Position numbers and translations under genes: made by a program | Assembly: GCA_009840135.1 (NCBI GenBank) | Contig: VXOH01000131.1 | Span: 3,608-67,607 of the forward strand | Source: Chloroflexota bacterium | Lineage (GTDB): Bacteria > Chloroflexota > Dehalococcoidia > Lucifugimonadales > UBA3495 | DNA length: 64,000 nucleotides | Direction of reading: 5' to 3' | Shown here: in pieces, positions 41,701 to 63,065 of the stretch | Layout of the letters: the number at the start of each line of letters is the position of its first letter | How positions within the stretch are numbered: the stretch's first letter is position 1 | Notes under the pieces: model-generated | Database searches by the model: none | Told to the model about the DNA's origin: nothing | Seen by the model: only the letters and a program-made list of their open reading frames with translations

Positions 41701-43147
41701 CGTCATACCCGGAATTCCCAGCCTGGAGAAACTCAATCCCAACGTCGCCTGGGACCAGACCTCCCTTCGCGTAACCGCCAACAAGATGGACTGGCCGGCA
41801 GCTACCGGTCGGCAGCCGATGGCCGGTGTCAGCGCCTTTGGTCTCTCCGGCGCCAACGCGCACGTATTGGTGGAAGGGTACAGCGGCGCCGCATACAGTC
41901 CGGCAGTAACCGATGGCGCAGCTCTGCCGGCGGGACTGCCAAAACCGGTTTCCGCAAACCTGCCTGATCCATTAGGCGGGCTGCAAAACCTCGACAAGAA
42001 CTCGCCGGAGCGAACGGGCCGCCTGTTGCCGATTTCCGGTAAATCGCCCGGAGCCTTGCGGGAATTGGCGGAGCGATACCTGAACTGGCTGGATGCCAGG
42101 CACCTCTCTGCCGATAGCGAAGACCTAGCCGACCTGGCCTGGACTGCCAGCGCTGGCCGCGCTCACTTCCCGCACCGGGCAGGGCTGGTATTCAACAGCC
42201 AGGACCAGCTTCGTCAAGAGCTGATGTCGCTGTCCCAAGCCGAATCGGTCACCGGAGGGTCAACACCCCGTGAATCTGCAAGGGTGGCGTTTCTGTTTGC
42301 TGGTCAGGAAAGCCCCTGGGACGGCCTGGGCGCGGACCTGTGCCAGGAAGAACCCGTTGCGCGGGCGGTGCTTGACCAGTGCGGTGAACAATTCAGGGCC
42401 GCCCGCGGCGTCTCCCTGCTGGATGTGATGTTCGGGCGGTCCGTTATCGACCCTGGCGAAAATGGTCCTGAATGGGAACTGCCGGCCCGGTACGCGCTGC
42501 AATGCGCGTTAACCGCCCAGTGGGCAAGCCTGGGAATACGGCCCAGCGCAATAGTGGCCGATGGTTTCGGATGGCTTGCGGCAGCGCAGGCAGCCGGCGT
42601 GTGCGGCCTGGAAGACGGCCTGCGATTCGCGGCAGCCCTTGGGGACATAAAGAATCTTCAGCCAGGGCAAGACCTGGCATCGGCGCAAAGAGACCTGGAA
42701 GACGCCCTCGCCGCGCTGAATCCCGGATTGTCATCCGTACCCCTGGTGGATTGTTCCAGCGGGCTGCGGCAGGATACCGTCGGAATGGCTGAGATTACCC
42801 GCTGGCTTCAGCAGGGCCAGGAGTCCATTGACTACACCGGCTGCGCAAACTTTTTGGCCGACCTGGAGGTGAATGCGGTTATAGAGGTCGGGTCCACCTC
42901 GGCAACAGGGAAAAAGATTGGCAGTAACTGGCCGGACACCTCAGAGGCGCCCCTGGTAGTGGCTGACATGACCAATTCCACCGATGGCAGCGGATCCGGC
43001 GATTCCGATGGCGGTTTCCTGAGGGCCGCAGCCAGCCTTTATGAGGCCGGAGTGGATATTACCTTCGAAGGATTGTTTGCCGGGGAGACCCGGCGGAGAA
43101 TTTCTGTCCCGACCTATCCCTTCCAGCGAAGGAGGTATTGGTTTTAG
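32768..43147 (+). CDS. type I polyketide synthase, KS-AT-DH-cMT-ER-KR-ACP-KS-(degenerate AT)
   Basis: Approximate domain spans: KS1 32831-34110 (DAACASS, EAHGTGT, NVGHLE). AT1 34529-35623 (GQGSQ, GHSVG, GFHS). DH 35660-36545 (HRVFGHLVAP, DGCFQ). cMT about 36990-37700 (LEVGAGTGS). ER about 38470-39440 (HAGAGGVGLAA). KR 39481-40020 (ITGGLGGIG). ACP about 40300-40530 (GMDSL). KS2 40623-41878 (DMACASS, EAH, NIGHVE). AT-like 42284-43141 (ADGFG instead of GHSxG). Confidence 0.95.
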   Translation: MATKPNSVSSRGAQSFPGGGEPIAIVGMACRFPGAPDLGSFWRLLVEGKNSVTEADPNSGVGRMGELFGDSQVNNQACRFGAFVDDLDLFDASFFRISPVEAELLDPQQRMMLEVSWQALEDAGIDPARLRGSRTGVYTGISNDEYRMLVVDSSKPSEAAACLYALSGTNLNGTSGRVSFVLGLMGPAKAVDAACASSLVSVHDAVADLQQGKADLAIAGGVQAILNGRIYELRADSMMLSPDGQCKAFDASANGYVRGEGCGVVILKRLSEAEADGDRIWAVIRGAAVNHGGTGVGLTVPNTPGLEQVMEAALADAGIEPLEVDYIEAHGTGTTVGDPIELNAVNAVYGQGRNPSEPLLVASVKTNVGHLESAAGIAGLMKAALVVNQGLIPRHLHFLDPNPSLDWEGLPLLVPTETVDWPDDRQRPRLVGVNSFGISGTNSHILVGQHIYDGQGTDHKISTLGPASTVKIKLPETFSQESPSNEEVFPRPKRVLPLSGKSGGALQELAQRYLAWLDDDSPDQLKDGLALLEKLSDMAWTASIGRSHFDYRSGLVYQDVPALREGLKALAETGQTGQTGQPPRAARVAFLYTGQGSQWVGMGQALYETEPVARAVMDDCDRIVMEVRGVSLLDVMFGRDETAGDLGDTAWEQPALYALECALTALWESVGVRPGAVMGHSVGELAAAQAAGVFSLRDGMRFALARGSLLSATEAGAMAAVFAPKSRVAEAVERVNAASGSVGLSVSADNGPQQVVSGPAADIEAVSRLFESEGIRAIRLNTSWGFHSALLDPALDGLEAALDGVPIQHPSIPLVSNLTGRQVEASMAMDGAYWRQHARQQVAFAGGIGTLAEMGMDLVIELGPHSVLGPMSMQAWPESAGERRLEGGPIALASLRRPPRDGSTPEPESSFIDAVAQAYEAGLDITFEGLFAGEERRRISLPGYPFQRERYWLQGARRRRSGGGHPLLGERHDSARGEIAFETEVFPSDPDWLKDHRVFGHLVAPGALYGAMAATASLLEGDCPVVLDDIQLHSPLVFTEPDSGEAPGAGGRKLQAFLEDSGEGSERLVQIFSRGPESGWTMHVEGRVVSNAALQDAEERADLDGLKSRLAPANVPAYYRAKAATSIDLGPAFRTLGRVWTGPGEALGEVSLPEALGLNDLEINPLVLDGCFQVVGMARNMTGSPDEPTYLPFGWERMWLTGKLPDRVVCHVLMSESGRVSDPDADDHPEALSGEIRIYDLDGALIGGLSGYTVKRATQAALLAAVEGAEGIDDLLYEVIWRDRPLESALKPAGFFPAPTTVAAGTRLFPDYLVEAGVDPKDRNALLADLERWSHSYALLTLEKLGWQRAQGEKVVAEELRQRLNVLPVHERLFRRLLEMLARSGVVEENDGGFTVLVGDGDTLPESLPSDPVNFDQQMLARYSHGLTEIGLFRRSAAALVDVLRGEQDPLTLLFSSGEPTAADLYLKAPVARAANGLLADTVRALLADLPDDRRLRVLEVGAGTGSATASVLPELPAGRFDYVYTDISAGFFAEAEERFGNQGIEYRPLDIEKDPVSQGFNSHGYDLIIASNVLHATQYLSETLGHCRDLLAPSGQLVALENLRGLGWMDLTFGQLDGWWRFADSYRPHHALATPAIWRQALTESGFEDATVLGVDDSFPYESLDKGVIVAQGPALVKEAQGLWVILGDREGEAGELAAELAARNQAILLAGVKEVTTGAEEPCVTEESRIQGVQEVAIDPASREDWQSILRELPGDVPFGGVVHLQSLDGHGNRSTARELDEDVSHAGESALVLVQGLLDTDVTPEKGVWFVTRGAQVLERENTGELSGSVLWGLGKAIALEAPHLQPRMLDLDPSSPTTASDLAGELLYPDEENHLAYRLGRRRAARLVRFAAGAEESGRLALPEETEWVLAPDRGGVFDQPEVKLLPSQPLEPREVRVAVEAAGINFWDVFRSLGFIEEGDLGREFCGYVMAVGSDVSNASVGDHVVGLGFGAFAPEMVTHEELVAPAPEEIPVSGLATIPSAFVSADLSYRMSGLKAGDRVLIHAGAGGVGLAAIQLAQAAGAEVYATASAPKQEYLRSLGVKHIFDSRQTRFGQEILETTGGEGVDVVLNSLTSEGFIDASLSCLARGGRFVELARRDILSHEEMAAVRPDVSYSILELDVLKKTEPDNVGVVLREIMRRVAGGELEPLIHSRWPMAQAGSALSFMRSARHIGKIVLTNQPLVRGSLRQDRSYLITGGLGGIGCAVAGWLADHGAGTIVLNGRRDPDPEAVMAIEELRQKGARVEVELADVTDTAAIDAMLARIDTNLPPLAGVIHSVGVLSDAALTNQTWETFQQVLRPKIMGAWHLHRATMQRDLDLFVLFSSRVGVMGNPGQANHAAANAFLDQLAGHRRALGLPGQAMAWGAWSEIGEAAEQRERIERRRSALGGRWFTPRQGLRALEKLVCQDTTTSVVMSMDWSVFEDAVESRPSFLEDLLTSGGGQETTDAGTSEDLLSQLRGVPSAAPQDLLTTFLQQQVQAVLRLSSAPSPTVGFFDLGMDSLMAVELRNRLNRAFAGQYTASNTVVFDYPDIASLSRHLAEELGQAQESGNAPELAEPAAQEPGQAATTADDGIAVVGMACRFPGAGNLDEFWKLLEEGREAITDGRQDGGSWTGAVGDPNAEDIAHRRGGFLDGIDQFDSRFFRIQPIEARMMDPRQRVLLETTWTALEDAGLDPDQLRGSRTGIYAGLGGSEYRDLIQSGDQTHTYLGTTGSVTVGRIAFALGLEGPAMPVDMACASSLAAVHQAVVALQRGEVDMALAGGANMVLSPAVSRFMMDVGMLSPTGQCRPFDASANGYVRGEGCGIVVLKRLSDAEADGDRIWAVVRGSAVNQNGASAGLTVPNGQAQVRVMEDAVTRAGISPSEVDYLEAHAVGSQLGDPIELNAVASVYGKDREQEKPLLIGSIKSNIGHVEWAAGISAFIKAVLSISNGVIPGIPSLEKLNPNVAWDQTSLRVTANKMDWPAATGRQPMAGVSAFGLSGANAHVLVEGYSGAAYSPAVTDGAALPAGLPKPVSANLPDPLGGLQNLDKNSPERTGRLLPISGKSPGALRELAERYLNWLDARHLSADSEDLADLAWTASAGRAHFPHRAGLVFNSQDQLRQELMSLSQAESVTGGSTPRESARVAFLFAGQESPWDGLGADLCQEEPVARAVLDQCGEQFRAARGVSLLDVMFGRSVIDPGENGPEWELPARYALQCALTAQWASLGIRPSAIVADGFGWLAAAQAAGVCGLEDGLRFAAALGDIKNLQPGQDLASAQRDLEDALAALNPGLSSVPLVDCSSGLRQDTVGMAEITRWLQQGQESIDYTGCANFLADLEVNAVIEVGSTSATGKKIGSNWPDTSEAPLVVADMTNSTDGSGSGDSDGGFLRAAASLYEAGVDITFEGLFAGETRRRISVPTYPFQRRRYWF

Positions 43148-43735: not shown

Positions 43736-45097
43736 TTACGCACTCTGCAATTGGGTTGGAAATTGACCAGGGAGGTCCGCTGTCCTTTTTGCCAATCGGT
43801 CAGAGCGGCCGCGGCCGACACCTGCGTAGTCAAACCCCAGTTCCGCCATAACCTCAGGCTCCAGCGCGTTTCTCCCGTCGAAAACATACCTGGGCGTCCG
43901 CATTATCCCGGCTATGCCGGCCCAGTCGGCGCCGACAATTTCGTCCCATTCCGTCAAGAGCGCCAGGGCCTGGGCTCCGGTGGCAGCCGACTCAGGGCTG
44001 CCAGAAAAGGCCACGCAGGCGGGCAGCTTCTTCCTTGCAGCGTGGTTGGCCTGGGGGTCAAAAGCCGCGACGTCCGCTCCTTCCTGCACCAGGGCTTCTA
44101 TCAGGTCTACAGCGGGGGCTTCGCGAATGTCGCTGGTGCCAGGCTTGAAGGCCAGCCCCAGCACGCCAACACGGACACCGGCCAGTCCCCCGGGAAAGCG
44201 GGAGCGCAACCGGGCCAGCGGCAGCATTCGCTGGCGGGCGTTCACGGATGCCACGGAACCAAGCAGGTCCATCTGGACTCCTTTGGCATGGGCCAAATAC
44301 TGAAGGGCCAAAATGTCCTTTGGGAAGCAGGACCCGCCGTATCCTATGCCGGGGTGGATTTGCTGGCCCGTCCTTGCATCCATGGCCAGCCCCAGGCTGA
44401 CCGCGTCTATGGACGCCCCAACCTCCTCACACAGTGCAGCCATCTCGTTGATAAAAGAAATTCGTGCGGCCAGGAAAGCGTTGCTGGCGTATTTGAGCAT
44501 TTCAGCGCTGGTGACGTCTGTGACCAGGTAGGGGGCTTCTATCGTGGCGTACATTTTCTTGACCACCGCGACGGCCCATTGGGAACACCGGTCAGCGCCC
44601 ACCACGATCCGGTCCGGGTGCATCCAGTCCTGTAATGCCCGCCCTTCCCTCAGGAATTCGGGATTGCTTACATAAGCCACATCCAGCCCTCTTAGCTCCC
44701 GTTGGGCAAAGGCGCTTCCGGAACCTGGCGGCACCGTACTCTTCATTACGATGGCGGTGTTTCCTGGCTGCAGGCTTCTGATCCAATGTAAGGCGGAAAG
44801 GACCTGGCTCAAGTCGGCCTCTCCCCCTTCACTGGCGGGAGTGCCCGTAGCCACCAGCGCCACTTCTCCCAGATTGCCGGAGAACTCTTCAGTGTCAAGG
44901 AAACACAGATTGCCCCTGCCCAGGCCTTCCTCCAGCCATGCCTCCAGACCGGGTTCGTGAAGAGCAGGCTTCCCCTGCTTCAGCCCTTCAATCCTGAACC
45001 TGTCAACATCTACTCCGGTGACGTGATGCCCCGCCCTGGCGAGGGCGCTGGCCGCCACCACCCCCAGGTGTCCCATACCAACGACCGTAATTCGCAA
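43736..45097 (-). CDS. UDP-glucose/GDP-mannose dehydrogenase family protein (UDP-glucose 6-dehydrogenase-like)
   Basis: Reads RITVVGMGHLGVVAASALARAGHHVTGVD, catalytic GGSCFPKD. TTG start with GGGGAGG upstream. Confidence 0.9.
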   Translation of the reverse strand: MRITVVGMGHLGVVAASALARAGHHVTGVDVDRFRIEGLKQGKPALHEPGLEAWLEEGLGRGNLCFLDTEEFSGNLGEVALVATGTPASEGGEADLSQVLSALHWIRSLQPGNTAIVMKSTVPPGSGSAFAQRELRGLDVAYVSNPEFLREGRALQDWMHPDRIVVGADRCSQWAVAVVKKMYATIEAPYLVTDVTSAEMLKYASNAFLAARISFINEMAALCEEVGASIDAVSLGLAMDARTGQQIHPGIGYGGSCFPKDILALQYLAHAKGVQMDLLGSVASVNARQRMLPLARLRSRFPGGLAGVRVGVLGLAFKPGTSDIREAPAVDLIEALVQEGADVAAFDPQANHAARKKLPACVAFSGSPESAATGAQALALLTEWDEIVGADWAGIAGIMRTPRYVFDGRNALEPEVMAELGFDYAGVGRGRSDRLAKRTADLPGQFPTQLQSA

Positions 45098-45224: not shown

Positions 45225-45253
45225 TTGACTTATAGAAATCTTACTGTTATAAG
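45225..45253 (+). promoter_or_regulatory. candidate sigma70-type promoter for the 45314-54034 gene string
   Basis: TTGACT, 17 nt, TATAAG inside a strongly AT-rich divergent intergenic region; 60 nt before the ATG at 45314. Confidence 0.45.
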
Positions 45254-45313: not shown

Positions 45314-48300
45314 ATGAACACTGGCAACACAACCGTAAATGCAGCCTCAATAGACGAAGCGCAATCTGTTTCTGCTCTGGGGGCGACTGGGCGCCCACCA
45401 ATCTCGATATTCAGGGTCCTGGTATCTGTGGCGGCGCTGGTGGTGGCCCTGGTTACCGTGGGCCTCCTCGCCGATTGGCCGCTGCTGGCCGAGGCTCTGA
45501 GGGAACTGGGGAAGCAGCCGTATCTTGTGCCTGTCCTGGTCATTGTGTACTCCTCCGCTTTCCTGCTGAGGGCCATAGCCTGGAAGGCGCTAATGGTCTC
45601 CGGCGGGAACACGTTCAAGCTGCTGGGGGCGTTGCAGGCAGCGTTGCTGGTCAATCACCTGGCGCCCCTGAAACTGGGCGAGTTTGTTCGCCCCCTGGCA
45701 GCAGCCAGGGCAGGCGTCCCACTGGCCGAGGCGGCAACCACCACGGCGGTGGCGCGGGTCCTGGACTTTGTGGCTTTGCTGGTAATTGCGGCCAGCGTAG
45801 GGTCTTTTGTTTCTTTGTCCGCCGGCGAGGGGCGCTGGCTCCAGGGACTGGCCCTGCCGGCGGTGGTGATTGCCGGAATCTGTGGACTGCTGCTGGTCCT
45901 GCGGTGGCGCCGGCTGCATGATTGGCTTCCGGAACTGCTGCGTACTCGCTTCGACATTATGCAGTCCCAGCTGAGGCAGGTGTCGGGACGGCGACTGGCT
46001 ACGGCCGCCGCCTGGACTTTACCCAGCTGGATTCTGGAAGCCGTGGTCATTATCGTGGCGGCCAGAGCCCTCGGGATCGAACTTTCCCTGGCTGCGGCAA
46101 TTTCGGTAACTGCCTTCACGATCCTGTTCCAGGCCTTCCATATCACTCCCGGCGGCATCGGCGTTTACGAAGCGGTTATGACGGGCGCCCTGTTTGCCCA
46201 CGGCATACCCTGGGAGGAAGGGCTCGCCCTGGCCGTGGCTACCCACGGTCTAAAGTTCGCCTACTCCTACACCATTGCCCTGGCCTTCTCCTTCACCGCC
46301 CTGGTCGGCCTCAGGCGGATGCCGTCGCTGAACCCGCTGAATCATCTGCGAGGTTCGTCAGACGGCGCCAAGTCGGCCTCCAGCTTCGAGGTTGTCGCGG
46401 CGCGCCTTTGGAACGTCCTCAATGAGGGCAAACCCTTTACACCGGTATTCACCCTGGGCATCATCGCCCTGCTGAGTGTCCCGCACCTGGGCGACGGCGG
46501 CTATTGGCTCCGCGCGGCAGGCGCGCTCCTTGCCCTGGTTCCCCTTTTCGTCGTGTTCTACCGCTTCGACTTCCCCCTGCGGCTTCGGGTGACCCTGTGG
46601 ATATACGTGGGCGTTTTCCTGGCCGTTTTCCGGTTCGCCGACCTGACGGCCATGGCCCTTATCCTGGGCATCTACCTGACTTTCACCATATTCCTGTGGG
46701 GCACGGTGTACTACCACCTGCGTATCGGCACTTCCTGGCTTAACTTTACCCGATTCTGGCGCCTGGTCCTGGAGAATCCGGACCCCACCAGCGGCAACTT
46801 CCTGGAGCAGATTCCCAAGCTGACGCTGCTGGTCCTCGCCTTCCAGATACTGGTTGCCCGACCCACGCCGGTGACGTATTTGGCGGTGGAAGGCTTTGTG
46901 CTGCTGTTGGCCATTACCGCGCTCCTGCTGCACCAGTGGTTCTTCACCTGGCCGCCCGCGCCATCCATGGTGCCTACGACCAAGCGCGCCATTAACGGCG
47001 AACGCATTTCCCGCCGCTTCATCACCATCGTCATCGACGGTTGCCGGGCCGACCGCCTGCTGGAGGCCAACACTCCGTACATAGACCGGCTGCGCAGTGA
47101 GGGCGTCGACTACATAGATACTTCGACAGTTTACCCGGCCCGCACGGTATCCGGTTTCAGCTCAATGTTCACGGGGGCGCCCCCGACCGTTCACGGCATG
47201 ACCAGCAACTTCGTGCCCAGCCTGGGCGTGAAGTGCGAGTCCATATTTGATGCTCTGCGGAAGGAAGGCTTGAACGGCAAGCTGGTGGGCATAGCTCACC
47301 TCATTGATGCCTTCGGCCACAACGACGTTGAAACGGTGACGGCGGTTACCAACAACGACGATATAGACAACGCGCTGACCGCCCGCGCCCAGGCGGTAAT
47401 ACAGCGGGACGACCCGGACCTGCTGATTCTGCAATTGTTAAGCGTTGACCAGACCGGCCACGCCCGGGGCAGCTACAACTCTGAGTACCTGGAAAAGATC
47501 GAGGAATCGGACCGGATAATCCAGCGTTTTCTGGAGTGGTGCGACTCCATCGGCTATCTGGACGAAGCCACAGTTGTGATTACCGCCGACCACGGCCAGG
47601 GCATCGGCATTGGCGGACACGGGCACATGAGCCCCACCGAACGGTACGTGCCGTGCATTCTGTGGGGCCACGGCGTGGAAACCCGGGGAGTTATCGCTGA
47701 GCCCCATTCGGTGATGGACGTTACCGCCACCATCGCCTACTTCCTGGGTGTTGCCCCTCCCGAACAGTCGGTGGGGCAGGTGCTGGGCATTGCCGAGAGC
47801 GAAGCGGATGTTGCTTCGCGTCCGGTCGCCGTAATCATTCCCGCCTACAACGAAACGGAGAACCTGCCTGACACGCTGGCGCGAATACCCCGCCGCCAAT
47901 TTCCCAACCTGAAGGTCATCGTCGTGGACGACGGTTCAACCGATGGTACGGCCCGGCTGGCCCGGGACCACGGCGCCGACGTGGTGATATCCCACACCCT
48001 TAACCGGGGTCTGGGCGCGGCCCTCCGAACGGGCCTGGCGGCTGCCAACGAACTGAATGCCAGGGCCGCGGTTTACGTGGATGCCGATGGCGAATATCCA
48101 CCGGAACAGATTCCCGACCTGCTGGAGCCCATATTGCAGGGTGAAGCCGACTACGTTCTCGGTTCACGCTACCTGGGCAAGAGACAGGGCCAGAGAGCGG
48201 TCCGCCTGCTGGGCAACCTGGTCTTTACCGGCTTGCTGTGCCTGGCGACGGGCCGGCGAATTACCGACGGACAGACAGGCTTCCGCGCCTTCTCGCGGCG

Positions 48301-48496
48301 GGCCCTGGAATGCGCCGAGATCATTCACGACTACAACTATGCCCAGGTTTTGACTCTTGACCTGCTCAAGAAGGGCATGCGGATGCGGGAGGTTCCCATT
48401 TCATACTCGCGCCGCACCCGGGGCAGGTCATTTATTGGCCCAAAGTACCTCTGGCGGGTCCCGGTAAGGATGCTGCAAGAGATGCTCAGCAAATAG
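45314..48496 (+). CDS. multidomain membrane protein: flippase-like (UPF0104/LPG-synthase-TM) + extra TM block + alkaline-phosphatase-superfamily phosphodiesterase + GT2 glycosyltransferase
   Basis: The N-terminal roughly 330 aa are polytopic, UPF0104-like. About 47021-47760: IVIDGCRADRL...YPARTVSGFSSMFTG..HGM...ITADHGQG..GGHGH (NPP/PglZ-type metal and nucleophile motifs). 47826-48493: VIIPAYNETENL...VVDDGSTDGT...DADGEY (DPM1-like GT2). Confidence 0.85.
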   Translation: MNTGNTTVNAASIDEAQSVSALGATGRPPISIFRVLVSVAALVVALVTVGLLADWPLLAEALRELGKQPYLVPVLVIVYSSAFLLRAIAWKALMVSGGNTFKLLGALQAALLVNHLAPLKLGEFVRPLAAARAGVPLAEAATTTAVARVLDFVALLVIAASVGSFVSLSAGEGRWLQGLALPAVVIAGICGLLLVLRWRRLHDWLPELLRTRFDIMQSQLRQVSGRRLATAAAWTLPSWILEAVVIIVAARALGIELSLAAAISVTAFTILFQAFHITPGGIGVYEAVMTGALFAHGIPWEEGLALAVATHGLKFAYSYTIALAFSFTALVGLRRMPSLNPLNHLRGSSDGAKSASSFEVVAARLWNVLNEGKPFTPVFTLGIIALLSVPHLGDGGYWLRAAGALLALVPLFVVFYRFDFPLRLRVTLWIYVGVFLAVFRFADLTAMALILGIYLTFTIFLWGTVYYHLRIGTSWLNFTRFWRLVLENPDPTSGNFLEQIPKLTLLVLAFQILVARPTPVTYLAVEGFVLLLAITALLLHQWFFTWPPAPSMVPTTKRAINGERISRRFITIVIDGCRADRLLEANTPYIDRLRSEGVDYIDTSTVYPARTVSGFSSMFTGAPPTVHGMTSNFVPSLGVKCESIFDALRKEGLNGKLVGIAHLIDAFGHNDVETVTAVTNNDDIDNALTARAQAVIQRDDPDLLILQLLSVDQTGHARGSYNSEYLEKIEESDRIIQRFLEWCDSIGYLDEATVVITADHGQGIGIGGHGHMSPTERYVPCILWGHGVETRGVIAEPHSVMDVTATIAYFLGVAPPEQSVGQVLGIAESEADVASRPVAVIIPAYNETENLPDTLARIPRRQFPNLKVIVVDDGSTDGTARLARDHGADVVISHTLNRGLGAALRTGLAAANELNARAAVYVDADGEYPPEQIPDLLEPILQGEADYVLGSRYLGKRQGQRAVRLLGNLVFTGLLCLATGRRITDGQTGFRAFSRRALECAEIIHDYNYAQVLTLDLLKKGMRMREVPISYSRRTRGRSFIGPKYLWRVPVRMLQEMLSK

Positions 48497-48535: not shown

Positions 48536-51127
48536 GTGCAAGACCACACAGGAACACTGGGAATGTTTACCAGGCGATATCATTGGCTTGCCGGTCTGGC
48601 GTTGGCCATGTTGATGGTGCTGACGCTGGCCTGCTCGCAACAGGAGCCTGCCCCCGCAACGCAGGTAGTTGAGGTGGACTCGGGCGCCACGGCAGCCGCC
48701 GCGCAGGCCGTGGCAGCGGCGGAACAGGCCCTGGCCGCAGCCCAGCAGGCCCAGGCGGCGGCGCAGACCCAGGCCGGGTCGGCGGAAGCCGTTGCCGCCC
48801 AGGCCAGCGCGTCGGCGGAACAAGCCCTGGCGGCGGCGCAGATGGCCCAGGCGGCGGCGGAGACGCCTCGCCGGGGTGAAGACCGTCCCACCATAACCGT
48901 CATCGGTGGCGGTGGCGGCACGGCCTCGGTATCCGGCACCGGTACAGGTACCGGAACGGGCTCAGTCTCAGGTATCGGCACGGGAACTGGGACCGGTTCA
49001 GTCTCCGGCATCGGCCACCATCACGGGCACGGCACGGGCACCGGTACGGGTTCAGTATCTGGCGCCATGGCCATGATGGACAAAGGGGTGTCCGGTGGAG
49101 TTATGATCCCCACCAACCTCAGCTATGAGACCAGCGGCCCCACCAAGTCCGATGGCTACTACACTCCTACCACCAACCGGGAAATTTACCAGAAGATTTC
49201 CACGGACTACCAGGAAATTCTGAAGCTGACCAACGTGATCAAGGAAGGCAAGCCCCTGCCTGCGGCGGAGATATGGTTGCTTTATGAGGCCGGGCCCCAC
49301 ACTAGACTCGGGCCCCAGAGCCGTACCCTTCGGAGCTTTGCGACAGGGTCCACGCCTTCAACCTATTACCCTGAGTCGGCCGAGTTCTACGGGTCAGACA
49401 CCTTTCTTGACGACCCCATCGAAAATGCGGTTCGGGGCCGTGGAGAGGCAGCGGAGTACACGGATGCCCAGAAGCGCCAGGCCATAGGCAAGGGCCTGCT
49501 CAGGATTGTCTATCACTGGGCCAAGTTTTACATGATAATCGGCCAGGACCGGATGAGTTCCCGCCTGATAGACGAGGCCTGGGCCGTTTACGTGGGCGAA
49601 GAAGTAAACGGGGACTACCCTAACTCCCTCTCGGGGGTAGCCCGTTCCCGTGAAGGCAACTTCGGCCGTGAAGGGACCATTGACATACCGCTGCGCCAGG
49701 CCATGGACCGGGCCAGGCGGGCTGCAGATGACGGAAACGCCGCGGCATTGGAGACGGCAACCAACGAGGTCTTTTCCCGATTTAACGCCATCTTCTACCT
49801 GGCCACGGTAAGGTACATGGGACGGGTATTCGATGACGCCCAGGCCGGTAACCGCGACGCGCTGGGAACCCACCAGGTGGAGGCCCTGGCCTTCTACCAG
49901 TCCATCCAGCCCGATGTGGCCAAGGCGAACGCGTCAGCCGATGAGACAATCATGGCCTACCTGACCGCGGAACCCAGCCACGTTACAGCTGCGTCGCGGG
50001 ACAGGGCGTTGGCCGCCCTTAATGGGACGGCTTCCGCCCTTATGCTGATGCCGAGCGACCTGGTCACCGCGTACACCGACGATACCGGCGACGGCTCCAG
50101 CAGCGCGCCGTCTCCGGCCACGGGTGAGCTGGACCTTTCCTCCAGCGTATTCATTCCGGTTAACCTTCCCCACGAGACCGACCGCAGCGTCCCCAGCCCG
50201 TCCGACGGTTACTACCACGCCACAACCAACCGGGAGCATTACCAGAAGATTCCTTCCGACTACCAGGAAATTGTCAAGCTGGCCAACGTAATCAAAGAGG
50301 GCCATCCCCTGCCCGTGGCTGACATATTCCTGCTGTACGAGGTAGGGATGCATACCCGTATCGGCGTCCGCAGCAAGACCCTGCGGGGCTTCGCTCGCGA
50401 CCCGGAACGATCTGAGGAGTTCCCACTGGCCACGGAATTCTACGGATCCGGCAGCTTCCTTGACTCGTCAATAAGCAATGTTGTTCGTGGGCGCGGCGCA
50501 GCAGAAAACTGGACCGATGCCCAAAAGCGGCAGGCCATCAACAAGGGCATTCTCAGAATCCTCTATCACTGGTCAAAGCATTACGTGATTGGGGGCTGTG
50601 CAGACCTCGACTCGGGAGATGTTGATGAGGGATGGGGTATCTATGTGGGGCTGCCGGGAAGTGATGGCAACTATCCCTATTCACTCTCCGCCCTGGCGCG
50701 AAGTCGGGAAGGCAACTTTGGCCGGGAGGGCGCCATAGACGTTCCCCTGCGCGAGGCCTTTGAGCGGGTCCGGCAGGCAGCGGAGAACGGTGATGCCGCC
50801 GCCTGTGCTGCCGCGGCTCAAGAGGTCTATTCCCGTTACAACGCTCTCTTCTACCTGGCAACCGTGCGGTACATAGGCGTCTCATACAATGACGTGGCGG
50901 AAGGGAAAGACCCGGGCACCCACCAGGTTGAGGCGCTGGCCTTCTACCAGTCCATTCAGCCGGAAGTGGCAAACGCCAACCCTGACGCTGATGCTACCAT
51001 CGTGGCTTTCCTCGAGTCTGCACCGGACCAGGTTACCGCTCAGTCCCGGGATGCGGCCCTGGCGGCCCTCAACAGTGTCGCCGACGCACTGCTGTTGACC
51101 CAGGCTGACCTGGTGACGGGTTACTAG
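48536..51127 (+). CDS. lipoprotein with Ala/Gln-rich and Gly/Thr/His-rich linkers and two tandem copies of a roughly 320-aa domain of unknown function
   Basis: Signal plus lipobox-like LMVLTLAC. Domain copies at 49105-50075 and 50152-51124 share long collinear strings (TTNRE.YQKI.SDYQEI.KL.NVIKEG.PLP, DAQKRQAI.KG.LRI.YHW.K.Y, ARSREGNFGREG.ID.PLR, THQVEALAFYQSIQP). GTG start with GGAGGAG RBS. Confidence 0.8.
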   Translation: MQDHTGTLGMFTRRYHWLAGLALAMLMVLTLACSQQEPAPATQVVEVDSGATAAAAQAVAAAEQALAAAQQAQAAAQTQAGSAEAVAAQASASAEQALAAAQMAQAAAETPRRGEDRPTITVIGGGGGTASVSGTGTGTGTGSVSGIGTGTGTGSVSGIGHHHGHGTGTGTGSVSGAMAMMDKGVSGGVMIPTNLSYETSGPTKSDGYYTPTTNREIYQKISTDYQEILKLTNVIKEGKPLPAAEIWLLYEAGPHTRLGPQSRTLRSFATGSTPSTYYPESAEFYGSDTFLDDPIENAVRGRGEAAEYTDAQKRQAIGKGLLRIVYHWAKFYMIIGQDRMSSRLIDEAWAVYVGEEVNGDYPNSLSGVARSREGNFGREGTIDIPLRQAMDRARRAADDGNAAALETATNEVFSRFNAIFYLATVRYMGRVFDDAQAGNRDALGTHQVEALAFYQSIQPDVAKANASADETIMAYLTAEPSHVTAASRDRALAALNGTASALMLMPSDLVTAYTDDTGDGSSSAPSPATGELDLSSSVFIPVNLPHETDRSVPSPSDGYYHATTNREHYQKIPSDYQEIVKLANVIKEGHPLPVADIFLLYEVGMHTRIGVRSKTLRGFARDPERSEEFPLATEFYGSGSFLDSSISNVVRGRGAAENWTDAQKRQAINKGILRILYHWSKHYVIGGCADLDSGDVDEGWGIYVGLPGSDGNYPYSLSALARSREGNFGREGAIDVPLREAFERVRQAAENGDAAACAAAAQEVYSRYNALFYLATVRYIGVSYNDVAEGKDPGTHQVEALAFYQSIQPEVANANPDADATIVAFLESAPDQVTAQSRDAALAALNSVADALLLTQADLVTGY
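48925..49063 (+). repeat. in-frame 36-nt tandem repeat (SVSG[T/I]GTGTGTG x3) with a GHHHGH insertion
   Basis: Three units read directly; the third carries the His-rich insertion at about 49023-49045. Confidence 0.85.
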
Positions 51128-51254: not shown

Positions 51255-52562
51255 ATGACAAGGACTTGTCGCCGGAACACTCCCGGGGCTCTGTTGACCT
51301 TCGTGGGTATGTTCCTTGCGCTTACCCTGGCCCTGGCAGGCTGCGGAGGAGGGGCGCAATCCCCTGCTCAGGCCCCTGCTCAGGCGGTTACGTCGCCGGC
51401 CCCACAGACGGGAGTCTCTACCTCGGCAGCGGCGCCCACTACTGCGCCGCCGGCCGCTGCCGCCGATGGCATGTCGTCCAGCTCCGGAACTGCCGCCGAG
51501 CCGGCTTCGCCCGCGGCCGCGGCTTCACCGGCGGGCGCGCCCAGCCCTGTGGCCCAGCCGACCCAGGCTCCACCGACCCAGGCTCCGCCGGCTCCTCCCG
51601 TCGCTCCAACGGAGCCGGCAGTGGAATACGACACTCTGACCGTTTACTCGGGGCGTTCGCAGACCCTGGTCCATCCGTTGCTGTTGGCCTTCGGCGAATA
51701 CCTGGGGGTGGATATAGAAGTACGGTACGGCGGCAGTTCGTCAACCGCCGCGACTCTCCTCGAAGAGGGTGACAACACACCGGCGGACGTGGTGTTCCTA
51801 CAGGACCCCGGTTCACTGGGTAGCCTGGCGGGCGAGGGAATGCTGGGCGAATTGCCCCAGGAGACCCTGGACAAGGTTGACCCCAGGCTGCGGGACCCTA
51901 ACGGGCGCTGGATTGGAACATCGGGTCGGGCGCGGACCGTTATATACAATACCGACCTGATAGACCCGGCAACGGACCTGCCGGATTCCATCCTCGACTT
52001 CACAGACGAGGAATGGAAGGGTAGAGTGGGATGGGCTCCCTGGAACGGCTCCTTCCAGGCCTTCGTCACTGCGTTACGATTGACCAAGGGTGACGACGCA
52101 GCAAGGGACTGGCTGGAAGGTATGAGGGACAACGAGGCACGGGACTATCCCAACAATGTCTCTATCGTGCAGGCCGCCGCCAATGGCGAGGTGGAAGTGG
52201 GATTCGTCAACCACTACTACCTGGAACGCTTCCTGGCCGAATACGGACCCGACTTCAAGGCCCGCAATTATTACATAGGCAATGGGGATCCGGGGGCGCT
52301 GGTCCTGGTGGCCGGCGCCGGTATCCTGGAGGTATCGGACAACCAGCACACCGCCCAGGAGTTCGTGGACTTCCTGCTCTCCGAACCTGCTCAGCAGTAT
52401 TTCACCTCGGAGATAAAGGAATATCCGGTGGCCGCCGGTGTAGTACCTGAAGGCGATTTGCCTCCAATAGACTCTCTTAATCCTCCCGACGTTGATCTGG
52501 GCAACCTGACGGACCTGGAGGGAACACTTGATTTGCTCAGGGATGTGGGCGTTGTGCCGTGA
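51255..52562 (+). CDS. Fe3+-type ABC transporter substrate-binding lipoprotein (FbpA/AfuA-like), no cognate permease/ATPase nearby
   Basis: Lipobox LALAGC, then a roughly 90-aa Pro/Ala/Thr tether, then LTVYSGRSQTLVHPLL..F....G..IEVRYGGSS......EEG...PADVVFLQD.... Confidence 0.8.
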   Translation: MTRTCRRNTPGALLTFVGMFLALTLALAGCGGGAQSPAQAPAQAVTSPAPQTGVSTSAAAPTTAPPAAAADGMSSSSGTAAEPASPAAAASPAGAPSPVAQPTQAPPTQAPPAPPVAPTEPAVEYDTLTVYSGRSQTLVHPLLLAFGEYLGVDIEVRYGGSSSTAATLLEEGDNTPADVVFLQDPGSLGSLAGEGMLGELPQETLDKVDPRLRDPNGRWIGTSGRARTVIYNTDLIDPATDLPDSILDFTDEEWKGRVGWAPWNGSFQAFVTALRLTKGDDAARDWLEGMRDNEARDYPNNVSIVQAAANGEVEVGFVNHYYLERFLAEYGPDFKARNYYIGNGDPGALVLVAGAGILEVSDNQHTAQEFVDFLLSEPAQQYFTSEIKEYPVAAGVVPEGDLPPIDSLNPPDVDLGNLTDLEGTLDLLRDVGVVP

Positions 52563-54034
52563 TACTGAAGCTGGACTCCCTGGCTGTGTCGAGCCGGATT
52601 AAGGAAAACGAGCTGCCGCTCCTGGCGGTGGCTCTTTTCCTTTTACTTGCTACTGCCTACCTATGGTCAGTGGACATACGGGCCACCCGGGGAGCGTCCA
52701 TTACCGGCGACGAGCCTTTCTACCTGCTGACCACTCAGAGTCTGCTGGCCGACGGCGACTTCGACCTGACGAATCAGTACGAAAGCAGGTCCTACACGTC
52801 CTTCTTTGATCATCCGGACGGCCTGTGGTTCCAATCTGTTACGCGGGAAGACGGCAGCCTGCTAAGCCCTCACAATCCAGGGTTGTCCTTTCTGGTTATC
52901 CCTGGGTTCGCCCTGGGAGGCCTGCTGGGCGTCCAGGTTCAACTTCTGTTGCTGGCATCCACCACCCTGGCGCTTGCTTTTGTGCTGGCCGACCGGCTGA
53001 CCGGCCATCGCCTGACCAGCTGGGTAGTAACGCTGGGCGTGGGTTTGACCGCCACTGCCTTCATCTATTCCACGGAAATATATCCGGAATTCCCTGCCGC
53101 TCTGGCGTTGATGGTGGCGTTGCTGCTGGTCACCCGGCGGACCCGGCTGGGAGTATCCGACGGGCTGTGGCTGGCCGCTACACTCACCGTCATGTGCTGG
53201 CTGGGTATCAAGTACGCGCCCCTGGCCTTGATTGTATCCACCTACTTCCTGCTGAAAACTGACCGGACGGGGCGTATTGCCCTGGTGTCGGCAGGGACTG
53301 TGTCAGCAGTGATCTTCGCCGGGATTCACCTTTACCTCTTCGGCGGCCTGACCCCCTACGGCAATAATGCGGTTTATGCCCAGTGGAACACAGTGGAGAT
53401 TCTGGCGGGACATATTGAATTTGGGGAGAGGTACTACCGGGTGTGGGGCATATTTATAGACCGCCAGTTTGGAGTTGGCCGTTGGGCGCCCCTGCTGCTG
53501 GCGGCAGTGCCCGGCCTGGCGCTGCTGGCAGTGGGCAAAGGGGCCATGAAGCTGGTCCTGGCCCTGGCTCTGGCCCAGTTGCTCATGGCAACCTTCGTAG
53601 CCATCACGATGATGGGGTGGTGGTTCGCCGGACGCACCATGCTGACGGTCCTGCCCCTGTTCGCCGTGCCCATTACGCTAGTCGCCGCGAGAAGCCCCCT
53701 GTGGGGAAGGGTTGGCGTTGCGTTGCTGGGATGCTACTCCCTGGCAATTACCGTGGGTCTGGCCTCGGCCGCCCATGCCGGGGAAGTCACCATCGCCGTG
53801 GACCCCTTCGACATGGCCTTCCCACCCTTCCAGGGGCTGGCGGGACTGTTCCCCCTGTACACATTGTGGACTACGGAGACCTGGTGGTTGACCTTCTTCT
53901 GGCTGACCCTGGCATTGCTGGCAACCGGAAGCATGGTATGGAAAGACATCTCTTCAAGAGTGGCAAGGGTTAACTTGCGAGAGTGGCGACGACCCCGACG
54001 CGCTCTTAACTTTCGCGGCAACACCATCACCTGA
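52559..54034 (+). CDS. polytopic membrane protein, putative GT-C fold (ArnT/PMT-like) glycosyltransferase
   Basis: More than 10 TM helices. The first extracytoplasmic loop has ITGDEPFYLLTTQSLLADGDFDLTNQY (acidic DE/DxD-type loop). GTG overlaps the upstream TGA. Confidence 0.6.
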   Translation: MILKLDSLAVSSRIKENELPLLAVALFLLLATAYLWSVDIRATRGASITGDEPFYLLTTQSLLADGDFDLTNQYESRSYTSFFDHPDGLWFQSVTREDGSLLSPHNPGLSFLVIPGFALGGLLGVQVQLLLLASTTLALAFVLADRLTGHRLTSWVVTLGVGLTATAFIYSTEIYPEFPAALALMVALLLVTRRTRLGVSDGLWLAATLTVMCWLGIKYAPLALIVSTYFLLKTDRTGRIALVSAGTVSAVIFAGIHLYLFGGLTPYGNNAVYAQWNTVEILAGHIEFGERYYRVWGIFIDRQFGVGRWAPLLLAAVPGLALLAVGKGAMKLVLALALAQLLMATFVAITMMGWWFAGRTMLTVLPLFAVPITLVAARSPLWGRVGVALLGCYSLAITVGLASAAHAGEVTIAVDPFDMAFPPFQGLAGLFPLYTLWTTETWWLTFFWLTLALLATGSMVWKDISSRVARVNLREWRRPRRALNFRGNTIT

Positions 54035-54035
54035 A

Positions 54036-54959
54036 CTACGGCCGCGCCAGCCCCTCGCTGGCCAGCAGGCCTTTCATCCCCTGGGCGAAGGGAATCCGGG
54101 GCTGCCACCCGATAAGCTCCCTGGCCCTGGAGTTATCGGCAGACTTGCGAAACTCCTCATAATCGCCCCTGGGGTTGGGGAGAATATGCGCTACCGGGCC
54201 TCCAATAATGGCAGCTATGTCGTTAACCGACGTTTCTTCTACCGGCCCAATATGCAGCGCGATATGCTGGCCCGTGGGCAGTTCAGCGGCGGCGGCGAGA
54301 AGATTGGCCTCGACCACATCGGACACGTGGGTATAACCGCGGGTCTGGTTCCCGTCGCCGTAGATCGTGAGGGGCTCTTTCAGTCGCCGCATATGCAGGA
54401 ACTTGGGAATTACCAACGGGTATGCACCGCCGGCACGCTGCCGTGGCCCGTACACGTTGAAGTAACGCAGGGAGATAATCCGCATATCGAAGAGCCTGGC
54501 GTACATTTCGGCATACCGCTCACCGACCAGCTTCTGCACCGCGTAGGGAGACAGGGGATTGGGTCTCATGTCCTCGCGCATGATGTGGCATTGCCCCTGG
54601 TGGCCATAGACGCTGGAAGAGGAGGAATTAACTACCCTGCTGACCCCGTTGAGGCGAGCCGCCTGGAGAACATTGAGGGTTCCGGTGACATTCACATGGT
54701 GGGTGCCCACCGGGTCGCTGACCGAGCGCTCCACCCGGGCCCAGGCCGCCGTATGGAATAACCATTCCGCCCCCTTGGTGGCCGATATCAGCATCTCCAG
54801 GTCAGTTACGGTTCCCTCCAACAGGGAGACCTGTGGATTCAGGAAGGAATTATCACCGGTAGAAAGGTCGTCCACCACCACTTCGTGCCCGAGTTGGACC
54901 AGTCGGTCAGCCAGGTGGGAACCAATAAAGCCACAGCCGCCGGTTACAACACACTTCAT
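54036..54959 (-). CDS. NAD-dependent epimerase/dehydratase (UDP-sugar epimerase or UDP-glucuronate decarboxylase-like)
   Basis: Reads VTGGCGFIGSHLADRL, catalytic SPYAVQK (YxxxK), FNVYGPRQ. Confidence 0.9.
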   Translation of the reverse strand: MKCVVTGGCGFIGSHLADRLVQLGHEVVVDDLSTGDNSFLNPQVSLLEGTVTDLEMLISATKGAEWLFHTAAWARVERSVSDPVGTHHVNVTGTLNVLQAARLNGVSRVVNSSSSSVYGHQGQCHIMREDMRPNPLSPYAVQKLVGERYAEMYARLFDMRIISLRYFNVYGPRQRAGGAYPLVIPKFLHMRRLKEPLTIYGDGNQTRGYTHVSDVVEANLLAAAAELPTGQHIALHIGPVEETSVNDIAAIIGGPVAHILPNPRGDYEEFRKSADNSRARELIGWQPRIPFAQGMKGLLASEGLARP

Positions 54960-59158: not shown

Positions 59159-59165
59159 CGCCTTT

Positions 59166-61680: not shown

Positions 61681-61690
61681 AGCGAGGTTT

Positions 61691-62857: not shown

Positions 62858-63065
62858 GTTCAACTCCTTTACCTCGTTTAACCTGAATCTACATACCCAG
62901 GCACGCAAAACCTGGATTTTCATACACCGCTATAACGATGCCAGTAAATACCATGGCCAGCTCGGATACAGTCCAAAGACCTCTCCGCTTCAAATCCTGG
63001 ACGCATCAATTCGGTTAACATCACATAGCACAGTTGGCATATCAATTTCTATTGTGAATGTAAAA

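Follow-up and report, generated by a model that had tools for sequence, protein, structure and literature searches.

The DNA analysed here, referred to below as the window, is a 64,000-nucleotide stretch of contig VXOH01000131.1 (assembly GCA_009840135.1) from a Chloroflexota bacterium of the class Dehalococcoidia. The gene of interest lies at 45314..48496 on the forward strand, where an open reading frame (ORF) of 1060 codons runs uninterrupted from ATG to stop. It is deposited in GenBank from a Chloroflexi metagenome-assembled genome (MAG) and is annotated only as 'glycosyltransferase'. The initial annotation described its product as a three-way fusion of a UPF0104 membrane domain, an alkaline-phosphatase (AP)-superfamily enzyme and a family 2 glycosyltransferase (GT2). 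The three families are real, but a fourth module, a six-transmembrane (TM) domain with an invariant loop, had been missed. The features of the gene are as follows (aa, amino acids).

45314..48496, + strand: four-module membrane protein of 1060 aa, GenBank MYC30666.1
45428..46264, + strand: module 1, polytopic UPF0104/LPG_synthase_TM domain (MprF-flippase-like, 'PplT'), aa 39-317, Pfam PF03706
46382..46939, + strand: module 2 (TM2), amphipathic helix and six TM helices, aa 357-542, from an AlphaFold2 model; no Pfam family
46709..46819, + strand: near-invariant loop between TM4 and TM5 of module 2, YYHLRIGTSWLNFTRFW..N.D.TSGN..EQ.PK, aa 466-502, from the columns invariant between Bacillaceae and Dehalococcoidia
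47012..47788, + strand: module 3, AP-superfamily domain of the NPP type, aa 567-825, predicted to be cytoplasmic; PF01663, PF00884, PF01676
47819..48478, + strand: module 4, GT2 catalytic domain of the dolichyl-phosphate/undecaprenyl-phosphate (Dol-P/Und-P)-sugar synthase type, aa 836-1055, PF00535

Four modules in one polypeptide

The three family assignments all exceed the curated Pfam cut-offs, and every motif quoted in the initial annotation was confirmed at its place: DGCRADRL (aa 575-582), YPARTVSGFSSMFTG (607-621), ADHGQG (758-763) and GGHGH (767-771) in the AP domain, and PAYNE (843-847), DDGSTDGT (872-879) and DADGEY (923-928) in the GT2 domain. The GC content is even along the ORF (0.60-0.64) and similar to that of the neighbouring genes. 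A search for the same architecture had been proposed as a check: more than 120 clusters (90% identity), themselves 67-100% identical to the query, share its full-length arrangement of Pfam domains. At least 398 stretches encoding relatives of the fusion were found in a scan of one genome per GTDB species. The best ~70 relatives are full-length orthologues (50-87% identity) from MAGs of Dehalococcoidia/Chloroflexota, many of them from chromosome-level assemblies and some from sponge-derived bins.

Module 1 covers nearly the whole PF03706 profile (2-296 of its 302 positions; E=2.5e-35; 122.8 bits, cut-off 33.4) and, weakly, also matches NCBIfam TIGR00374 ('flippase-like domain'). UPF0104 is listed in 148 architectures (preprint 10.1101/2022.03.11.483950). 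The C-terminal part of the fusion gave no Pfam match to the DUF2156/aminoacyl-phosphatidylglycerol (PG) synthase that would indicate an MprF, its domains being AP and GT2, and the membrane part (aa 1-569) has no sequence match in the PDB.

The GT2 domain (PF00535, aa 840-999, E=1.2e-27) contains the motifs DDGSTDG, DAD, GSRY and TDGQTGFRAF. By sequence it is assigned to the polyprenyl-phosphate-sugar synthase class (DPMS/GtrB/ArnC/AglJ/PpgS), in agreement with its earlier description as DPM1-like. The best PDB match is the Dol-P-mannose synthase (DPMS) of P. furiosus, 5mlz (8.8e-21; 1e-22 with a profile), in alignment with which equivalents of DAD..PPE.IP..GSRY and TGFRAF are present; ArnC follows at 1e-11 to 1e-13. 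The NCBIfam models returned are AglJ (105 bits, cut-off 325), Dol-P-hexose transferase (88/375), PpgS (80/370) and ArnC (49/529). The domain has no TM helices of its own, as the protein ends ~5 residues past the catalytic domain, and the stand-alone GT2 of Bacillus (253 aa) is likewise without a TM helix. In this respect it is unlike P. furiosus DPMS, GtrB and ArnC, which have C-terminal TM or juxtamembrane helices, and resembles the TM-less DPM1/Ppm1.

A second TM block after the UPF0104 region had also been proposed and is indeed present (aa ~357-542). In an AlphaFold2 model of aa 335-835 (pLDDT 80, pTM 0.82), an amphipathic helix, six TM helices and an interfacial helix precede the AP fold, with helices at 357-370, 375-391, 395-417, 422-439, 444-471, 475-487 (interfacial), 496-515 and 519-542. 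The block has no Pfam match at E<=5, and among non-fragment representatives it never occurs without AP. Its loop at aa 466-502 is rich in Lys and Arg, which places it on the cytoplasmic side, and is almost invariant between the two phyla, so TM2 is functional and more than an anchor.

Within the AP domain (aa 570-813), Pfam reports Phosphodiest (PF01663, 1.6e-23; 84.3 bits, cut-off 23), Sulfatase (8e-18) and Metalloenzyme (5e-11). A full NPP catalytic set aligns with the NPP of Xanthomonas (Xac): D575 with D54, the nucleophile T611 with T90, N632 with N111, and the metal residues D712/H716 and D759/H760 with D210/H214 and D257/H258, to which H769/H771 are added. These catalytic residues are invariant in 42 sequences from Bacilli and Chloroflexi. 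Of the two labels that the domain had been given, 'NPP-type' is therefore borne out and 'PglZ-type' is not: PF08665 has no match at E<=0.1 and appears only as a precomputed extra match in four Bacillus homologues. A sulfatase function was also considered and rejected, since the model matches (65 bits) but the nucleophile region YPARTVSGF presents Thr and lacks the CxPxR formylglycine motif. The position of the base-stacking F91 of Xac NPP is occupied by an invariant Val, so the substrate is probably not a nucleotide. Foldseek searches with the TM2+AP model returned a Vibrio AP-superfamily protein, PbgA/YejM, Xac NPP, sulfatases and full-length MCR-1, all at 1e-10 to 1e-12; the chemistry of the domain is thus not settled by its fold.

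The AP domain, the TM2 loop and the GT2 domain are all predicted, on four lines of evidence, to face the cytoplasm. Firstly, no hydrophobic segment lies between AP and GT2, which are joined by a linker of 15-25 hydrophilic residues, and a nucleotide-sugar-dependent GT2 must be cytoplasmic. Secondly, the segments rich in Lys and Arg by alignment-averaged charge (aa 198-233, 336-373, 465-497 and 545-570) all fall on one side. Thirdly, in the stand-alone Bacillus 6TM+AP proteins, the N-terminus, the TM4-5 loop and the segment after TM6 hold ~12 Lys and Arg against ~0.6 in the opposite loops, which puts both ends of the six-TM block in the cytoplasm. Finally, a relative of 1100 aa (P0128) has exactly one TM helix after GT2, followed by a C-terminal domain homologous (1e-29) to a Bacillus protein with a signal peptide and a C-terminal anchor. 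With AP on the cytoplasmic side, any modification would precede flipping, and the 'make-flip-modify' order of the initial annotation gives way to one in which modification comes before the flip.

Gene fusion, neighbourhood and regulation

The distribution of the modules was explored by an exhaustive search of 1.8 billion representatives, together with hidden Markov models of the four modules. TM2+AP alone, TM2+AP+GT2, UPF0104+TM2+AP, UPF0104+GT2 and the full four-module fusion were found, always in the order UPF0104, TM2, AP, GT2; the full fusion makes up 2-3 clusters at 50% identity. Beyond the Chloroflexota, the remaining genome matches of the species scan belong to cultured Bacillaceae (Bacillus sp. 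cl95, REN3 and DJP31, Fictibacillus halophilus and B. methanolicus PB1) and to one MAG labelled Pseudoneobacillus. Here the modules are encoded by three consecutive genes in the order of the fusion, UPF0104 (~320 aa), 6TM+AP (~485 aa) and the TM-less GT2 (~253 aa), preceded by the gene of a short-chain dehydrogenase/reductase (SDR) epimerase. Identity between the phyla is ~50% for GT2, ~46% for TM2+AP and ~29% for UPF0104. Stand-alone 6TM+AP proteins are widespread in Geobacillus, Parageobacillus, Anoxybacillus, Neobacillus, Peribacillus and others, under the name 'alkaline phosphatase family protein'. Adjacent genes in Bacillaceae and every intermediate fusion in a single order indicate that the modules work together, as the initial annotation had supposed.

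The most distant TM2+AP homologues (30-32% identity) were not used for inference; for one (L080; L-numbers denote related loci) the flanks read contain no GT2, and for the other (L081) the contig stops directly behind the gene. The former (L080:8001-9512, 30% identity) is a 6TM+AP paralogue in a Firmicute (chromosome CP032848.1, 5.2 Mb), where bofA lies on one side and csfB/gin-type sporulation-region genes on the other, and neither GT2 nor UPF0104 is nearby; the TM2+AP family is therefore broader than the glycosylation-related system.

The genes and the promoter around the fusion gene in the window are listed below.

43736..45097, - strand: UDP-glucose 6-dehydrogenase (UGDH), divergent from the fusion gene, with three UDPG_MGDP_dh Pfam domains
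45225..45253, + strand: promoter-like TTGACT-17 nt-TATAAG, read from the sequence, in the AT-rich gap between UGDH and the fusion gene
48536..51127, + strand: duplicated FEA1-related lipoprotein, lipobox LTLAC, NCBIfam NF038033 (E=2e-53, two stretches)
51255..52562, + strand: FbpA/HitA-family ferric-iron-binding lipoprotein, lipobox LALAGC, PDB 7w3w (3e-80)
52559..54034, + strand: GTC491, candidate polytopic GT-C-fold glycosyltransferase of 491 aa, from an AlphaFold2 model and Foldseek
54036..54959, - strand: NAD-dependent sugar-nucleotide epimerase/dehydratase, nearest to TviC-type uronate 4-epimerase, Pfam Epimerase (1e-55)

In ~65 of 79 related loci these genes follow one another as fusion, FEA1-like, FbpA and GT-C; the exceptions are mostly truncated contigs. 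An FEA1-like lipoprotein is encoded in 66 of the 79. In Dehalococcoidia these proteins continue after the lipobox with GEDRPxIxVI (GEDRPTITVI in the window) and then with (S-V-S-G)/(T-G)n repeats, which form the linker at 48875-49063 in the window and exceed 100 residues in some species. FEA1 itself is an algal iron-assimilation, phytotransferrin-like protein, and the lipoprotein of the window bears a His-Gly run, GHHHGHG. The FbpA lipoprotein (65/79 loci) has a linker of ~100 aa rich in Ala, Pro, Ser and Thr, further HitA/FbpA matches in the PDB at 1e-46 to 1e-63, and matches to Pfam SBP_bac_6/8/1/11.

GTC491, whose GTG start overlaps the FbpA stop codon (GTGA), is also found in 65 of the 79 loci. 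It has no Pfam (E<=5), NCBIfam or PDB sequence match, and its candidate assignment as a GT-C glycosyltransferase comes from structural modelling (pTM 0.73). All confident Foldseek matches (probability >=0.84) are GT-C enzymes, namely ArnT, DPY19, AftA, AglB, ALG9, ALG3, Pmt4 and PimE (probability ~1, TM-score 0.36-0.46), against a probability below 0.12 for transporters. The motif GDEPFY after TM1 (52706-52723), including D51, E52 and P53, is invariant. UGDH (NCBIfam NDP-sugar dehydrogenase, 357 bits, above cut-off; TuaD-like) is present in 44 of the 79 loci and in L084. The best NCBIfam models for the epimerase are TviC (1.3e-42) and GalE (9e-41), both scoring under their cut-offs, and an SDR epimerase also adjoins the system in L083 and L084. 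With a GT-C-fold transferase, UGDH and an epimerase as conserved partners, the fusion is not the 'self-contained' machine that it had been taken for.

Five of six Bacillaceae loci have a cluster with the gene order FEA1-like lipoprotein, epimerase, UPF0104, 6TM-AP, GT2, sec249, the iron permease FTR1 and a membrane protein of 485 aa. The match of its first member to FEA1 is weak (NCBIfam 1.6e-5), and L084 and L085 hold homologues of both the window and the Bacillaceae FEA1-like proteins. The system is thus embedded in iron-uptake clusters in both phyla, with FEA1-like and FbpA proteins in the window and FEA1-like and FTR1 proteins in Bacilli, a conserved link that the initial annotation had not picked up.

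Further lineages display the same iron and GT-C theme. In L084, where TM2+AP+GT2 carries a fused sec249-like domain, the neighbours are an iron-type substrate-binding protein, an FEA1-like protein (5e-40), a TMEM260_N-type GT-C, UGDH, an epimerase and a cupredoxin. In L082, TM2+AP+GT2 adjoins an iron-type substrate-binding protein with an ABC permease as well as a sec249 homologue, and in L083 UPF0104+TM2+AP is followed by the epimerase and GT2. The UPF0104+GT2 fusions of L085 and L086 have no adjacent TM2+AP, on contigs of only ~3 kb where a more distant TM2+AP gene is possible, and are directly followed by an FEA1-like lipoprotein or, in L086, by a GTC491 homologue. Neither the 249-aa nor the 485-aa protein of Bacillus has a Pfam match at E<=5; the latter is homologous over its full length (4e-35) to the L084 GT-C of the TMEM260_N type. 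A GT-C partner accordingly occupies the same slot in three lineages. In hhalign comparisons of the GTC491 profile with the two TMEM260-type GT-Cs no relationship was found (probability <1%), so the partners of different lineages are not orthologous, as would be expected if the constant feature is a polyprenyl-phosphate-sugar donor.

The sec249 family comprises secreted, C-terminally anchored proteins with an AYSYG start and a GxPGxxGVG motif, and belongs to no Pfam family. In Bacilli it is encoded with FTR1 (L075:13111-13860), and P0128 (L084:1942-5244) is a TM2+AP+GT2 protein extended at its C-terminus by one TM helix and a sec249-like domain.

Regulation by iron is indicated for Bacilli. In three loci of Bacillaceae, each of the two best sigma-70-like promoters in the cluster carries the Fur box consensus TGATAATCATTATCA, which is perfect at both sites in L075 (7533-7547 and 13071-13085) and, in L076 and L079, perfect at the second site and with one mismatch at the first. 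Chance alone would give ~0.2 matches per locus, and the observed count was not equalled in any shuffle. The first box is upstream of the FEA1-like gene, from where no called promoter or terminator intervenes up to the epimerase-to-GT2 genes; the second is upstream of sec249, FTR1 and GT-C. Since the boxes are placed on promoters beyond chance, it is very probable, by sequence, that the system belongs to the Fur regulon of Bacilli.

In Dehalococcoidia, no operator was identified upstream of the fusion gene. The AT-rich upstream region of the window, in which one was suspected, reads as a plain sigma-70-type promoter; TTGACA..N17..TATAAG is kept upstream of the orthologue in L001, L068, L043, L016 and L022, and the window copy was not reported by the consensus scan because its -10 hexamer ends in G. 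In 16 loci (L003, L004, L005, L007, L009, L010, L013, L023, L036, L044, L045, L046, L048, L052, L063 and L065), an almost invariant, GC-rich, two-hairpin element of ~95 nt stands on the sense strand ~150-270 nt upstream of the fusion gene (e.g. L046:9846-9940). Its second hairpin, whose CCCUCCUCC loop is anti-Shine-Dalgarno-like, precedes a U-rich tract. The element may be a leader or attenuator; it matches no Rfam family, shows no covariation and is absent from the window, where Rfam gave no match at all.

Other genes of the window include, at 57710-62923 (- strand), an HTTM-domain protein (vitamin-K-carboxylase-like), an imelysin, a di-haem DHOR oxidoreductase and a second imelysin, an iron-related set that lies directly upstream of the fusion gene in many Dehalococcoidia loci (e.g. 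L002-L010). At 32768-43147 (+ strand), a type I polyketide synthase of 3459 aa (KS-AT-DH-MT-ER-KR-ACP, then a second KS, with a second AT match) is encoded, the genome being that of a sponge-associated Chloroflexi; it is not kept next to the fusion gene (weak partial matches of ~25% identity in 4/79 loci). A myo-inositol-1-phosphate synthase gene (26206-27756, + strand) is followed by an ABC-2 type exporter pair at 29230-31011.

A proposed pathway and its alternatives

The fusion may represent the cytoplasmic half of a three-component glycosylation pathway (GT2, flippase, GT-C) to which an NPP-type enzyme has been added, within an iron-acquisition cluster; we give this proposal an even chance of being correct. 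In the first step, GT2, tethered by the membrane modules upstream, would use a nucleotide sugar to glycosylate polyprenyl phosphate at the inner leaflet. The UGDH and the uronate-type epimerase nearby suggest that the sugar is perhaps a hexuronic acid such as galacturonic or glucuronic acid. In the second step, the six-TM module and the two-metal, Thr-nucleophile NPP-type domain would act as one membrane-interface enzyme at the cytoplasmic face, working on a phosphate-containing head group of the same lipid intermediate. UPF0104 would then move the finished lipid-linked sugar to the outer leaflet, and the GT-C enzyme (52559-54034) would transfer the sugar to an extracytoplasmic acceptor.

For the second step, the preferred guess, by analogy with EptA, LtaS and PigN chemistry, is that the AP module adds or remodels a phospho-linked substituent. 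Such a role is favoured because enzymes built of TM helices and AP are, as a class, lipid-donor phosphotransferases, and because the nucleotide-stacking residue is absent. It would take the pathway position of ArnD, NaxD and GpgD, which modify before the flip, and the UPF0104+GT2 systems with no adjacent TM2+AP suggest an accessory decoration. The most likely acceptors would be the Ser/Thr-Gly-rich linkers of the co-encoded FEA1-like and FbpA lipoproteins, such stalks being typical O-glycosylation substrates. A protein acceptor is also plausible in that several structural relatives of the GT-C partners (TMEM260, PMT and DPY19) are protein glycosyltransferases. Precedents for a UPF0104 protein working with a glycosyltransferase and a modify-before-flip enzyme are AglD (PMC5898192) and GpgSDF (PMC12713373).

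Several points weigh against this proposal. Lipid translocation by UPF0104 is established only for MprF, with phospholipids, and is predicted for AglD, GpgF and YbhN (PMC5898192; PMC12713373; 10.1101/2022.03.11.483950). The GT2 domain scores below every NCBIfam equivalog cut-off, and too far below to assign a particular sugar or carrier lipid. The AP domain is, by sequence and by fold, equally close to NPP, sulfatases, PafA and the PbgA/MCR-1 class, and no phospho-donor pathway genes lie near the fusion gene. A TM-anchored AP-superfamily phosphotransferase that faces inward would be without precedent; to our knowledge, all those characterised face outward. The model of GTC491 has a moderate pLDDT of 66 and weak Foldseek E-values (3e-3 and worse), and TM2+AP homologues at 30% identity occur without GT2. 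In addition, the iron-uptake neighbours could be regulatory rather than mechanistic partners.

Foremost among the alternatives, it is conceivable, though unlikely, that the AP module is hydrolytic and acts before or alongside GT2. It might provide GT2 with de novo carrier lipid by converting, at the cytoplasmic face, polyprenyl diphosphate to polyprenyl phosphate and Pi, or it might hydrolyse the nucleoside diphosphate (NDP) released, whose removal would pull a reversible polyprenyl-phosphate-sugar synthase forward. NPPs cleave R-O-P-O-P bonds, and the complete NPP set found here, including the N111 equivalent, is typical of diester and pyrophosphate cleavage. The invariant Arg, Lys and His of the TM2 loop could bind a pyrophosphate head group at the cytoplasmic interface, and a position of AP between a lipid-binding TM domain and a TM-less GT2 would suit the hand-over of one lipid. 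We know of no identified enzyme that dephosphorylates de novo undecaprenyl diphosphate at the inner face; nor do we know of any AP-superfamily undecaprenyl-diphosphate phosphatase, which counts against such a role. Moreover, the Val in place of F91 speaks against a nucleotide substrate, and GT2 does not obviously depend on the AP module, as UPF0104+GT2 fusions with no adjacent TM2+AP still adjoin FEA1-like or GT-C genes.

Somewhat more doubtful is a scheme like that of MprF or GpgSDF, in which GT2 and AP modify a glycerophospholipid head group at the inner leaflet and UPF0104 flips the product. For instance, cleavage of the phospholipase D or C (PLD/PLC) type followed by glycosylation could yield a phosphatidyl-sugar or glycolipid that alters surface charge or metal binding, and the GT-C enzyme would be unrelated or merely a lipid consumer. 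The NPP family does include lipid PLC-/PLD-type enzymes (NPP2, NPP6 and NPP7). The layout of eight TM helices, six TM helices and a cytosolic enzyme is one that we take to be MprF-like, although a PDB sequence search gave no match. Modified phospholipids are also the only experimentally supported UPF0104 substrates (MprF), and GpgSDF and HexSDF pair a glycosyltransferase and a head-group-modifying enzyme with a UPF0104 protein (PMC12713373; 10.1101/2022.03.11.483950). Nevertheless, the GT2 domain falls into the DPMS/ArnC/AglJ/PpgS class and not among the GT4/GT28 glycolipid synthases, and non-orthologous GT-Cs in the same slot of three lineages are hard to explain without a polyprenyl-phosphate-sugar donor.

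The model of the initial annotation, a self-contained machine that makes, flips and then modifies, with AP outside as in LtaS, EptA and GacH, is very improbable. It is in keeping with the extracytoplasmic location of all characterised membrane-anchored AP-superfamily lipid enzymes and with the full-length Foldseek alignments of TM2+AP to PbgA and MCR-1. Yet there are six TM helices here and not five, the positive-inside rule puts AP in the cytoplasm in both phyla, a hydrophilic linker of 15-25 residues joins AP to a nucleotide-sugar-dependent GT2, the architecture of P0128 fixes the side of GT2 and AP as cytoplasmic, and a separate GT-C is conserved.

Lastly, a chimeric assembly or frameshift-fused gene call, for which nothing speaks except the origin of the window in a MAG, is excluded for practical purposes by an identical architecture in more than 120 clusters and ~70 species, closed chromosomes included, by the even composition of the ORF and by independent partial fusions in other lineages.

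Known systems and the biology of iron uptake

The proposed polyprenyl-linked pathway has its closest likeness in three-component systems such as ArnC/ArnD/ArnEF/ArnT, GtrB/GtrA/GtrV, CsbB/GtcA/YfhO and RgtE/RgtA-D, which combine a DPMS-like GT2, a membrane flippase and a GT-C enzyme outside; ArnC and ArnT are among the best sequence and structural matches. As in the Arn and Rgt systems (the latter with a UDP-glucuronic acid 4-epimerase), Ugd and an SDR enzyme would supply a uronate-derived sugar. As with ArnD, an extra enzyme would act on the lipid-linked sugar before the flip, here an NPP-type metallo-phosphodiesterase with a six-TM domain instead of a deacylase. Unlike in these systems, the flippase candidate is UPF0104 and not of the GtrA, ArnEF or GtcA type, GT2 is TM-less, the parts at the cytoplasmic face are all in one chain, and the setting is iron uptake in monoderms rather than lipopolysaccharide or teichoic acid.

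A DPMS-like GT2 covalently joined to UPF0104 is known from archaeal AglD (PMC5898192), and a conserved GT-C neighbour is shared with the arCOG00899 neighbourhoods, where AglD-like GT2 occurs with PMT/STT3-like GT-C (Makarova et al. 2015, PMC5898192). In AglD, however, the GT2 is N-terminal, so that the order is reversed, no 6TM-AP is inserted, and the context is S-layer N-glycosylation and not iron. MprF and GpgSDF/HexSDF likewise modify a head group at the inner leaflet before a UPF0104 flip and place a polytopic part ahead of a cytosolic enzyme; operons of glycosyltransferase, deacetylase and UPF0104 make GlcN-PG (PMC12713373). The present system differs from them in the lack of a DUF2156 synthase, in a polyprenyl-phosphate GT2 instead of GT4, in the AP-superfamily modifier and in the presence of a GT-C consumer.

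The combination of several TM helices followed by an AP fold with a Thr nucleophile and a metal site is shared with EptA/MCR-1, LtaS, OpgB, BcsG, GacH, PigN/O/G and the inactive PbgA/YejM, and PF01663 is presumably also the Pfam family of PigN-type enzymes. Compared with the EptA/LtaS/MCR class, which has five TM helices and an outward AP domain, the family described here has six and a predicted cytoplasmic AP domain. Further differences from EptA and LtaS are the full two-metal ligands of the NPP type, the first of them Asp, and a counterpart of N111; in sequence the family is nearer to NPP, PafA and sulfatases.

A further parallel is provided by mycobacterial Ppm1 (Rv2051c), a fusion of Lnt with a polyprenyl-phosphate-mannose synthase, which exists as a Ppm1/Ppm2 pair in M. 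smegmatis and C. glutamicum and whose product feeds the O-mannosylation of lipoproteins by Pmt, a GT-C enzyme. There, too, a TM-less DPM1-like GT2 is fused to or adjoins a polytopic lipid enzyme, as a fusion or an operon depending on the lineage, and feeds a GT-C that glycosylates lipoproteins. The partner in Ppm1 is a CN-hydrolase acyltransferase (Lnt) and not an NPP-type enzyme, with neither UPF0104 nor a link to iron.

GT2-UPF0104 fusions (AglD, PMC5898192) and the three-component glycosylation scheme are thus already known. Outside this scheme stand the cytoplasm-facing NPP-type membrane enzyme, the covalent tie of UPF0104 and GT2 in bacteria, and the link to FEA1, FbpA and FTR1. In the searchable literature, no characterisation of the fusion was found, in line with the initial annotation, and none of the 6TM-AP family or of a glycosylation-FEA1/FTR1 link. 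Nor did it yield a description of a bacterial polyprenyl-phosphate-type GT2 fused downstream of UPF0104, of the 6TM+NPP module or its predicted inward orientation, or of such a pathway linked to FEA1, FbpA and FTR1 iron uptake.

A bolder reading, improbable as a whole, is that UPF0104, 6TM-NPP, GT2 and GT-C are an integral, Fur-controlled part of an unrecognised Fe(III)-uptake system of monoderms, consisting of an FEA1/phytotransferrin-like lipoprotein with either FbpA or FTR1, in which uptake would require a lipid-linked phosphate- or uronate-bearing glycan on the lipoprotein stalks. As part of the same joint claim, 6TM-NPP would be the first inward-facing membrane AP enzyme acting on a polyprenyl-linked intermediate, either as a new phospho-group transferase or as the missing polyprenyl-diphosphate phosphatase of the cytoplasmic face. 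The Fur-box operon in cultured Geobacillus, Parageobacillus, Neobacillus and B. methanolicus may make the hypothesis testable by genetics and lipidomics. If the proposed pathway is true, UPF0104, a very widespread family, would gain a concrete polyprenyl-linked substrate, and membrane AP-superfamily enzymes would gain a new reaction class. Iron acquisition in Chloroflexota and Bacillaceae would then depend on a dedicated glycosylation of iron-binding lipoproteins.

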